Part shown: piece after piece, positions 3,903 through 7,574 of the stretch
Numbering within the stretch: the first letter of the stretch is position 1
Layout of the letters: every line of letters begins with the position of its first letter
Origin: Escherichia coli
GTDB lineage: Bacteria > Pseudomonadota > Gammaproteobacteria > Enterobacterales > Enterobacteriaceae
Assembly (NCBI RefSeq): GCF_024700885.2
Contig: NZ_CP117016.1
Length of the DNA stretch: 64,000 nt
Reading direction: 5' to 3' (one strand)
Program-made: the position numbers and the translations under genes
Notes under the pieces: model-generated
Told to the model about the DNA's origin: nothing
What the model saw: only the letters and a program-made list of their open reading frames with translations
Databases searched by the model: none

Positions 3903-4232
3903 TTGCTGCAAAGTCGCAATGATCATTTGCGCCAAACGGCATTGCGCAACGCACATACCCCGGCGTCTTTGTTAACGACATTGACTGAGCCTCAGGATCG
4001 GGCGTTGGTTATTAATAATCCACAGTTGGCTGCCGATGTGAAAACGACGTGGTTAAAAGAGGATCCATCATTACTCTTATTTGTCGATCAACCCGATCTT
4101 TCGCTGTTACGTGATTTAGTGAAAACAGGGGCAACGCGGAAAATTCGCAGTGAAGCGCGTCACCGGCTTGAGGAAAAACAAAAAACGCATAATATTGCTG
4201 CGCTAAAAATTATTGCCCGCCGTAGCGAATAA
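3903..4232 (+). CDS. ykiA: Hypothetical protein (ykiA-like); start uncertain, TTG at 3903, no in-frame ATG upstream
   Basis: 109 aa ORF in an AT-rich patch; open frame extends upstream to 3819 without ATG. Confidence 0.35.
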   Translation: MLQSRNDHLRQTALRNAHTPASLLTTLTEPQDRALVINNPQLAADVKTTWLKEDPSLLLFVDQPDLSLLRDLVKTGATRKIRSEARHRLEEKQKTHNIAALKIIARRSE

Positions 4233-4257
4233 TTATATGCCTGGTGTAGCTTCGTAC

Positions 4258-4290
4258 GCCGGATAAGACGCGGCAGGCGTCGCATCCGGC
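4258..4290. repeat. REP (repetitive extragenic palindrome) element
   Basis: GCCGGATAAGACGC...GCGTCGCATCCGGC imperfect palindrome between convergent ykiA and rdgC. Confidence 0.6.
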
Positions 4291-4309
4291 ATTAAAGGAA
4301 AATCAGCAA

Positions 4310-5345: not shown

Positions 5346-6254
5346 GTGCGTATAGGTATCGATTTAGGCGGCACCAAAACTGAAGTGATTGCACTGGGCG
5401 ATGCAGGGGAGCAGTTGTACCGCCATCGTCTGCCCACGCCGCGTGATGATTACCGCCAGACCATTGAAACGATCGCCACGCTGGTTGATATGGCGGAGCA
5501 GGCGACAGGGCAGCGCGGAACAGTGGGGATGGGCATTCCTGGCTCAATTTCGCCTTACACCGGCGTGGTGAAGAATGCCAATTCAACCTGGCTCAACGGT
5601 CAGCCATTCGATAAAGACTTAAGCGCGCGGTTGCAGCGGGAAGTGCGGCTGGCAAATGACGCCAACTGTCTGGCGGTTTCAGAAGCGGTAGATGGCGCGG
5701 CAGCGGGAGCGCAGACGGTATTTGCCGTGATTATCGGCACGGGATGCGGCGCGGGCGTGGCATTCAATGGGCGGGCGCATATCGGCGGCAATGGCACGGC
5801 AGGTGAGTGGGGACACAATCCGCTACCGTGGATGGACGAAGACGAACTGCGTTATCGCGAGGAAGTCCCTTGTTATTGCGGTAAACAAGGTTGTATTGAA
5901 ACCTTTATTTCGGGCACGGGATTCGCGACGGATTATCATCGTTTGAGCGGACATGCGCTGAAAGGCAGTGAAATTATCCGCCTGGTTGAAGAAAGCGATC
6001 CGGTAGCGGAACTGGCATTGCGTCGCTACGAGCTGCGGCTGGCAAAATCGCTGGCACATGTCGTGAATATTCTCGATCCGGATGTGATTGTGCTGGGGGG
6101 CGGGATGAGCAATGTAGACCGTTTATATCAAACGGTTCCGCAGTTGATTAAACAATTTGTCTTCGGCGGCGAATGTGAAACGCCGGTGCGTAAGGCGAAG
6201 CACGGTGATTCCAGCGGCGTACGCGGCGCTGCGTGGTTATGGCCACAAGAGTAA
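5346..6254 (+). CDS. mak: Fructokinase/mannokinase (ROK family)
   Basis: [17 protein letters not shown] sugar kinase N-terminus, GTG start at 5346 preceded by AAGGAGA; CxCGxxGC zinc motif (CYCGKQGC). Confidence 0.9.
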
Positions 6255-6279
6255 AAAACGTAGGCAATTGGCGCATCAT

Positions 6280-6362
6280 GCCTGATGCGATGCCGCGTCT
6301 TATCAGGCCTGCAAAATGTGCCGGAACCGCAGGCCGATAACGCGTTCACGCCTCATCCGGCA
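6280..6362. repeat. BIME: two inverted REP elements
   Basis: GCCTGATGCGATGCCGCGTCTTATCAGGCCTGC followed by inverted GCCGGATGAGGCGTGAACGCGTTATCGGCCTGC copy between mak and araJ. Confidence 0.6.
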
Positions 6363-6389
6363 ATAAGCAACGCGCACCGTGACAGTAAT

Positions 6390-7574
6390 CTACCCCAGTG
6401 GTTTCGCCAGCACCGGACTATCCGCCGCTTGCTGGCGTTTATAGCGACCATACAGCAGCAACGACGACATCGCAGCAAACGAAAGCAGGGCGGCAGGCAG
6501 CGCCACGTAATTATATGCCAGCCCCAGCGTCAGCATCATACCACCGCAATATGCGCCGACGGCGCTACCGAGGTTAAACGCTATTTGCCCACCTGCGGCA
6601 CCTAATAACTCTCCGCCTTTGGCATTTTGCAGTAACAATATTTGCAGTGGTGCTGAAAGGGCAAATAATCCCGCGCAACAAATAAATGCAAAAATAAGCG
6701 ACGTTGTTTTCATGCCGCCGAAGAAAAAGAGCATCAGCAGTGCCAGCACAATAATAAAGTCAGTTACTGCCGCAATGCGCAGTGGTGAATAACGTCCTGA
6801 AATCCGGCCACTTAGCACATTCCCCAGCACCATCCCTAGCCCAACTAACATCATAATAAAAGTCATCGCCGTTTCCGAAAAACCGGAAATAAACATCATG
6901 TATGGCTTTACGTAGCTGAACCAGGCAAACACACCTGCGTTGCCAAACATGGTGGCGGCGAAAATTAACCACGGGGCCGGGCTGCGCAAAAAGTGAAATT
7001 GTTCGCGTAGCTTTCCTTTCGCCTCGTCGCGAATATCCGGCACCCAAAAATAGACCGATGCCATCACCGCAATATTAAAAACAGCGATCAATAAAAAGGT
7101 GTAACGCCAGCTAAATTCCTGACTTAAATACGTTCCCAGCGGAATGCCCAGCAAATTGGCGACTGTCATCCCGGAAACCATCCCCGCCACGGCGGCGGTG
7201 ACTTTGCCGGGTTTGATAATTTTTGATAACACGATCGCTCCGACGCCAAAAAATGCACCATGCGGAAAGCCGGAAACCAGCCGACCAATGGCGAGCATCA
7301 GGTAAGACGAAGAGAGCGTGAACATGGCGTTGCCAATGACGCACAACGCCACCAGAAACAACAAGATATGTTTGAGTGAGTAGTGGCTGGAAAAGAGTGC
7401 GATGATTGGCGCACCGACCACCACCCCCAGCGCATAATACGAGATCATATGTCCGGCAGCAGGAATCGAAATTCCTACGTTATGCGCCAGCTCCGTGAGC
7501 ACGCCCATAATGCCAAATTCGGCCATCCCCAAACCAAACGTGCCCAGAGCCAAAGATAAAATGACTTTTTTCAT
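6390..7574 (-). CDS. araJ: MFS transporter AraJ
   Basis: Translation MKKVILSLALGTFGLGMAEFGIMGV, 12-TM MFS; start moved to internal ATG. Confidence 0.9.
   Translation of the reverse strand: MKKVILSLALGTFGLGMAEFGIMGVLTELAHNVGISIPAAGHMISYYALGVVVGAPIIALFSSHYSLKHILLFLVALCVIGNAMFTLSSSYLMLAIGRLVSGFPHGAFFGVGAIVLSKIIKPGKVTAAVAGMVSGMTVANLLGIPLGTYLSQEFSWRYTFLLIAVFNIAVMASVYFWVPDIRDEAKGKLREQFHFLRSPAPWLIFAATMFGNAGVFAWFSYVKPYMMFISGFSETAMTFIMMLVGLGMVLGNVLSGRISGRYSPLRIAAVTDFIIVLALLMLFFFGGMKTTSLIFAFICCAGLFALSAPLQILLLQNAKGGELLGAAGGQIAFNLGSAVGAYCGGMMLTLGLAYNYVALPAALLSFAAMSSLLLYGRYKRQQAADSPVLAKPLG

Follow-up and report, generated by a model that had tools for sequence, protein, structure and literature searches.

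A probable BIME-2 unit with an eroded sequence between the convergent genes mak and araJ of Escherichia coli

RESULTS

Repeats between mak and araJ

Between the 3' ends of mak and araJ, which converge, there is very probably one BIME-2-type unit, composed of a z2 and a y REP placed foot to foot (positions 6279 to 6362), and its alignment with other alleles marks it as a decayed copy. The unit lies in the window, i.e., the whole 64,000-nt stretch of DNA analyzed here, which its sequence identifies as E. coli chromosome: positions 404,767 to 465,397 of K-12 MG1655 aligned with it as a collinear counterpart, with 95.4 to 98.5% identity per aligned segment (97 to 98.5% in the long segments), and E. 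coli strain 1190 (NZ_CP023386.1) was 100% identical to it in four sampled segments. A sequence-only reading had described REP/BIME palindromes at four convergent gene junctions as a known class of E. coli core intergenic DNA. All four sites were found in place, each of them intergenic and 3' to the two converging genes, namely, the ykiA/ykiD pseudogene region and rdgC, mak and araJ, yajQ and yajR, and fadM and queC. Class, inversion and extragenic position matched the published definitions of the REP/BIME family (PMC3333891); the mak/araJ element is of an already known kind, and nothing is new at the four sites, as that reading had also held.

The mak gene (fructokinase; 5346 to 6254, + strand) was delimited from the RefSeq annotation of the identical segment of strain 1190, and its TAA stop at 6252 to 6254 was checked. 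The converging araJ gene (MFS transporter; 6390 to 7574, - strand) has its stop codon at 6390 to 6392. In the 135-bp gap between them, a z2-type REP on the + strand (TGCCTGATGCGATGCCGCGTCTTATCAGGCCTGC; 6279 to 6312), starting 24 nt downstream of the mak stop, was identified by an exact match to the REP pattern and by alignment with the K-12, IAI39, and A30 alleles. A short (S-type) linker of 16 nt (AAAATGTGCCGGAACC; 6313 to 6328) separates its foot from that of an inverted, y-type REP on the - strand (6329 to 6362; GCAGGCCGATAACGCGTTCACGCCTCATCCGGCA on the + strand), which lies 27 nt downstream of the araJ stop and was identified by alignment and by its match to the y consensus (92.6% identity over 27 nt, E = 5e-6). 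The earlier description of 6280 to 6362 as two inverted REP copies forming a BIME was borne out by this z2 (+) and y (-) pair at 6279 to 6362.

In the published classification, BIME-2 combines z2 and y REPs with a short S linker, and BIME-1 combines z1 and y REPs with a long L linker containing an IHF site (PMC3333891). The succession z2 (+), 16 nt, y (-) is that of BIME-2, and no IHF-like site was found in the 16-nt linker, where the best match had five mismatches. BIME-2 is typified by several copies in tandem, accompanied by s/l/r flanking motifs, whereas the window has one unit. The REP head and tail (GCCKGATG ... YATCMGGC, within an imperfect palindrome of 30 to 40 nt) occur exactly at 6279 to 6312 and at 4254 to 4291, the REP of the ykiD/rdgC junction; the y REP at 6329 to 6362 escapes the exact pattern because of one 1-nt deletion and one substitution. 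The stem mismatch typical of REPs is present in all three and was kept as a 1-nt symmetric internal loop in their predicted folds. The conserved GTAG foot (PMC3333891) is replaced by GCAG at mak/araJ and by GTAC at 4254 to 4257.

Decay of the window allele

Alignment revealed the GTAG-to-GCAG change at both feet of the mak/araJ unit (the z2 tail has CTGC in place of CTAC). The z2 loop is 4 nt shorter than that of K-12, CGCT being missing, and the y REP has a 1-nt deletion in the stem and two substitutions. Unit 1 of the K-12 mak/araJ array has an intact GTAG, and because this orthologous copy has it, we read the GCAG feet as the decay of a true member of the REP family.

The predicted free energy of the z2 RNA hairpin was -15.6 kcal/mol (z -2.7) versus -21.3 for its K-12 orthologue, and that of the y hairpin was -14.6 kcal/mol versus -21.3, with a z score of -1.35 that sets it barely above shuffled sequence. 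By these predictions, the hairpins of K-12 would be more stable than those of the window by about 6 kcal/mol. In the minimum-free-energy fold of the whole intergenic RNA, the two REP feet paired with each other and the two REP hairpins were not formed. This pairing makes an RNA function of the window allele doubtful.

Of 5,424 genomes compared with a 251-bp query, 24 have the exact allele (100% identity) and 29 match it at 99% or more. The next most similar allele, found in the clade F strains IAI39, SMS-3-5, and CE10, has the GCAG feet and the y deletion in common with the window and keeps the z2 loop. The 4-nt loop deletion and one substitution are the only changes peculiar to the window lineage when it is set against IAI39.

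Variation among E. coli strains

The comparison of copy number with K-12, proposed as a check on the sequence-only reading, gave two REPs in the 135-bp gap of the window versus four in the 244-bp gap of K-12, where two tandem units recur with a 102-bp period. To survey other strains, 40 genomes were taken at even steps through the ranking of the 5,424 matching complete genomes. A single unit was present in 21 of the 40 (match length 799 to 808 bp), two units in 10 (910 to 912 bp), and two units with a longer spacer in 8 (933 to 934 bp), while the match was split by IS1397 in the last one. At the sequence level, A30, O78, and IAI39 have one unit, K-12 and NCTC9966 have two, and the B2 strains NC101 and CFSAN067215 represent the two-unit form with the longer spacer. 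The locus was syntenic in 5,424 of 5,426 genomes, and its variation consisted of changes in tandem unit number and small indels, with no new locations. Gap lengths of 135, 142, 133, and 244 bp were found between strains, and their differences are not multiples of 3.

IS1397 is known to insert specifically into REPs (PMC1525189). In strain BH100 MG2014, the two ends of the IS1397 copy at mak/araJ adjoin REP loops, that of the first z2 REP and that of the last y REP. In BH100 MG2017, a second copy interrupts the loop of the REP at ykiD/rdgC and is accompanied by a duplicated CAG. These natural insertions independently support the view that both sites are true palindromic units.

The suggestion that such repeats could serve as strain markers holds for mak/araJ, which was polymorphic among the 5,424 genomes and whose length can be used to tell E. 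coli lineages apart (one unit, two units, or IS1397 interrupted). It fails for the fadM/queC hairpin, which showed no length variation in the sampled genomes and is therefore no strain marker.

Recognition by RayT and mobility

REPs are substrates of the Y1 enzyme RayT (TnpA_REP), and mutation of GTAG to ACGA or removal of the stem mismatch abolished binding and cleavage by this enzyme in vitro (PMC3333891); the mutant foot of those experiments, ACGA, is different from the GCAG found at mak/araJ. A search of 5,426 complete genomes located the rayT gene in 3,575 of them. Strain 1190 has hicA-hicB in its place at the canonical locus between flhA/lfhA and yafL. Such a replacement of rayT by hicAB in some lineages has already been published, as has the unusually low REP number of the clade F strains IAI39 and SMS-3-5 compared with other E. 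coli strains; the erosion at mak/araJ fits both reports (PMC3333891). Given that both GTAG motifs are mutated and that hicAB occupies the rayT locus of the closest genome, the mak/araJ copy is most probably a relic, immobile and reduced in hairpin function, and weak or no recognition of it by RayT is to be expected.

We considered it unlikely that the allele records a stepwise erosion of the BIME that was finished in a lineage with hicAB in place of rayT. The order of events would then have been loss of GTAG on both REPs, followed by the stem deletion and lastly by the loop deletion, and, if this were true, such genomes would provide a naturally occurring test of the need for RayT in maintaining E. 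coli REPs. However, rayT is retained in IAI39, in a neighborhood that departs from the K-12 gene order, and that strain already has most of the decay, i.e., both GCAG feet and the y-stem deletion. Erosion as a consequence of rayT loss was therefore mostly rejected; the decay is not attributable simply to the loss of the enzyme, and the comparison of these alleles leans against a causal link.

The opposite possibility, a REPIN-like doublet currently copied or moved by RayT in the window strain, is very improbable. Two inverted REPs with a short spacer do have the REPIN/BIME architecture (PMC3116915, PMC3337134), and the number of units differs between strains, but the latter variation occurs at one syntenic locus (5,424 of 5,426 genomes) without new locations. 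Moreover, both feet are GCAG, RayT lost binding and cleavage in vitro when GTAG was changed to ACGA (PMC3333891), and hicAB takes the place of rayT in strain 1190, the genome to which the window is identical in four sampled segments. The REPtron, furthermore, is not regarded as a true transposable element by the authors of PMC3333891 themselves. An immobile relic of a BIME-2 unit remains our preferred reading.

Transcription terminators and chance matches

The position of the unit between convergent 3' ends, with a stem-loop on each strand 24 to 27 nt past a stop codon, is also what a bidirectional Rho-independent terminator of mak and araJ, unrelated to any repeat family, would show. We nevertheless give this explanation very little credence: a scan of both strands from 6150 to 6500 revealed no stem with a T-run after it, the sequence matches the dispersed y and z2 consensus sequences, and the unit is tandemly duplicated in K-12. 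No predicted intrinsic terminator coincided with any of the REPs or with the fadM/queC hairpin; none was found between 63300 and 63550, and no T-run follows 63413 to 63438. Terminator-like sites were detected at 43766 to 43781 (-) and 4216 to 4229 (-), both outside the REPs.

The search with a REP consensus, another check proposed at the outset, yielded three matches to TGCCKGATG-N8-22-YATCMGGC in the window, at 4258 to 4291 (-), 6279 to 6308 (+), and 63413 to 63438, versus none in 100 dinucleotide-preserving shuffles. The bare REP 10-mer with one mismatch allowed was weakly enriched (22 matches versus 11.8 expected, about 2-fold). As the 10-mer is weakly enriched and the full pattern is absent from the shuffles, it is the palindromic context that carries the REP signal. 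That the palindromes of the unit are coincidental in GC-rich intergenic DNA, or that they encode a small ORF or an sRNA, has a practically negligible probability: there are overlapping ORFs of 106 aa (6285 to 6605, +) and 73 aa (6128 to 6349, -), and the 10-mer enrichment taken alone is slight, but the ORFs run antisense into araJ or mak, the shifts in gap length are not multiples of 3, the full head-gap-tail pattern did not arise in the 100 shuffles, and an Rfam search gave no match in the mak/araJ gap. The sole Rfam match at the gathering threshold in the window was the sRNA sraA between clpX and lon (57322 to 57417, -; 106.7 bits).

Searches by blastn-short with REP consensus sequences were very noisy at permissive E-values and, at a stricter E-value, missed the REP at 4254 to 4291 and the K-12 pgpA/yajO REP; a head/tail mismatch scan with shuffle controls was used instead. 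This mismatch-tolerant scan of the window yielded no further credible REPs. REP-like matches in coding DNA at 47 to 74, 7269 to 7303, 54153 to 54179, and 55571 to 55606 were dismissed, as they stand at the two-mismatch level, at which 2 to 8 matches per shuffle arise by chance. The first of them, whose two-mismatch match is thus at chance level, is a palindrome (GCCTGACGTC...TCATCAGGA) that extends across both stop codons of the convergent genes dgcC and proC.

REP-like sequences at the other junctions

At the ykiD/rdgC junction, a single REP on the - strand (4254 to 4291), identical in sequence to that of K-12, combines a y-type head with a z2-like stem-loop. Its start is 18 nt past the rdgC stop, and its RNA hairpin was predicted at -25.0 kcal/mol (z -5.4). 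At position 4182, in the ykiA pseudogene/ykiD region, the window has a 32-bp deletion relative to K-12; differences in junction length across strains result from this deletion, independently of the REP.

Between yajQ and yajR, a degenerate y-like REP (43800 to 43834, +), a 24-nt linker (43835 to 43858), and a z1 REP (43859 to 43888, -) form a pair in which GTAG is intact on both sides (43831 to 43834, as CTAC, and 43859 to 43862). The z1 REP agrees with the consensus at 28 of 30 positions (E = 7e-8), and the length of the junction was constant in 24 sampled full-length matches. Since a zero-mismatch search for the IHF consensus missed even the canonical BIME-1 of K-12, mismatches were scored directly: the best match had two in the 24-nt linker and one in the 35-nt linker of K-12 yajD/tsx. 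On these sequence features, the yajQ/yajR pair is tentatively classed as BIME-1-like rather than as canonical BIME-1, as its linker is short and lacks a good IHF site.

The REP-like hairpins reported at 43801 to 43923 correspond to this pair in their left part (43800 to 43888) only. Positions 43883 to 43923 are not a REP; they form an unrelated inverted repeat, perfect over 11 bp (CAGGCAATTCG ... CGAATTGCCTG; loop of 19 nt), that reaches the yajR coding sequence. Its left arm overlaps the head of the z1 REP, the yajR stop lies in the loop, and the right arm is within the last yajR codons. About 140 of the 5,424 genomes gave no full-length match at the yajQ/yajR junction; in the one example inspected (NZ_CM173843.1), yajQ is immediately followed by genes that encode a tetratricopeptide-repeat protein and a protein with SEL1-like repeats.

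The fourth site, 63413 to 63438, has its start 12 nt past the fadM stop and its end 14 nt short of the queC stop. It is a REP-like perfect palindrome of 26 nt (GCCGGATGC / GCATCCGGC, 7-nt loop) with nine complementary pairs and with GACA and ACCA on its flanks; K-12 has the identical sequence, and the length of the palindrome did not vary among the sampled E. coli genomes. The predicted free energy of its RNA hairpin was -18.5 kcal/mol. It had been listed as a REP palindrome, and the loose head/tail pattern is indeed there; however, it has neither GTAG nor a stem mismatch, the hallmarks of REPs. By its sequence, we regard this hairpin as REP-like at most, since it departs from canonical REPs.

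REPs and insertions relative to K-12

The RefSeq feature table used for K-12 had no REP entries, and K-12 REPs were therefore compared by sequence. Over the same interval, the window has 5 REPs versus 10 in K-12, out of a published genome-wide total of 584 in K-12 (PMC3333891). The K-12 surplus comprises the additional BIME unit at mak/araJ, a canonical BIME-1 at yajD/tsx, and a z2 REP at pgpA/yajO. The K-12 BIME-1, consisting of a z1 REP, a 35-nt linker with ATTCAATATATTG, and a y REP, is missing at window position 27900, and the yajD/tsx junction has only a short hairpin there (AAAAATGCCGGATATGAAATCCGGCATTC). The position of the pgpA/yajO REP falls in a stretch of the window taken up by an insertion of about 2 kb (33904 to 35886; 34.1% GC), which encodes a 523-aa pentapeptide-repeat protein (34084 to 35655, -) whose resemblance to the Salmonella type III effectors PipB2 and PipB is weak and below threshold.

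Another insertion relative to K-12, of 1.65 kb (19423 to 21072), lies between malZ and acpH and has a GC content of 37.6% compared with 50.9% for the whole window. It contains an ORF of up to 507 aa (19532 to 21055, +), annotated as a hypothetical protein in strain 1190 and without Pfam or NCBIfam match. Between acpH and queA (21661 to 21870), where K-12 has no such element, the window has an ERIC/IRU-type repeat that is interrupted internally by about 70 to 80 bp; conversely, the K-12 ERIC between yajO and dxs (K-12 positions 438152 to 438276) is missing at window position 36878.

DISCUSSION

The consequence of this analysis is mostly one of annotation, in that the palindromes are standard REP/BIME repeats, not genes or terminators. 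With its two REPs in opposite orientations, the mak/araJ unit would provide each convergent transcript with its own sense-orientation REP, 24 nt past the mak stop and 27 nt past the araJ stop. By analogy with the family, REP stem-loops in RNA may act as 3'-end barriers that stabilize the upstream message, a mechanism that reportedly goes back to experiments of the Newbury/Higgins type. REPs can also assist Rho-dependent termination, and binding of REPs by Pol I as well as a role of IHF has been described (PMC2817692, PMC1525189). BIME-2 arrays bind DNA gyrase, with high-affinity binding and cleavage (Espeli and Boccard 1997, as cited in PMC2817692). Whatever may hold for transcript ends, gyrase binding, and RayT activity at mak/araJ, we infer from these properties of the family.

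Several known systems can be compared with these repeats. Like Rho-independent terminators, the mak/araJ unit has GC-rich stem-loops just past stop codons, but it lacks a U-tract and its sequence comes from a dispersed repeat family. It resembles the REPINs of Pseudomonas and E. coli in being an inverted doublet; these are proposed to be non-autonomous and to depend on a single-copy Y1 enzyme, rayT/yafM in E. coli (PMC3116915, PMC2817692). It differs from the REPIN-RAYT system in its mutated recognition tetranucleotide, in a variation that consists of tandem gain and loss rather than dispersal, and in that the canonical locus of the closest genome is without rayT.

BIME-1 (RIP) has its likeness in the yajQ/yajR pair, which associates a z1 with a y-like REP in a single copy with both GTAG motifs intact. 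That pair differs from BIME-1 by its 24-nt linker, in which the best match to the IHF consensus has two mismatches, and by its y arm, about 80% identical to the consensus in a manual alignment; the mak/araJ unit, for its part, has no L linker. The mak/araJ unit of the window departs from BIME-2, as defined in the classification of Bachellier, Gilson, and Hofnung (PMC3333891), in being a single unit with GCAG feet, a z2 loop shortened by 4 nt, a y stem shortened by 1 nt, and weaker predicted hairpins. It agrees with BIME-2 in its inverted z2 and y REPs, its 16-nt linker, and its extragenic location at convergent 3' ends, and the locus as a whole does so in its two tandem units in K-12, its strain-variable unit number, and the presence of IS1397 in REP loops.
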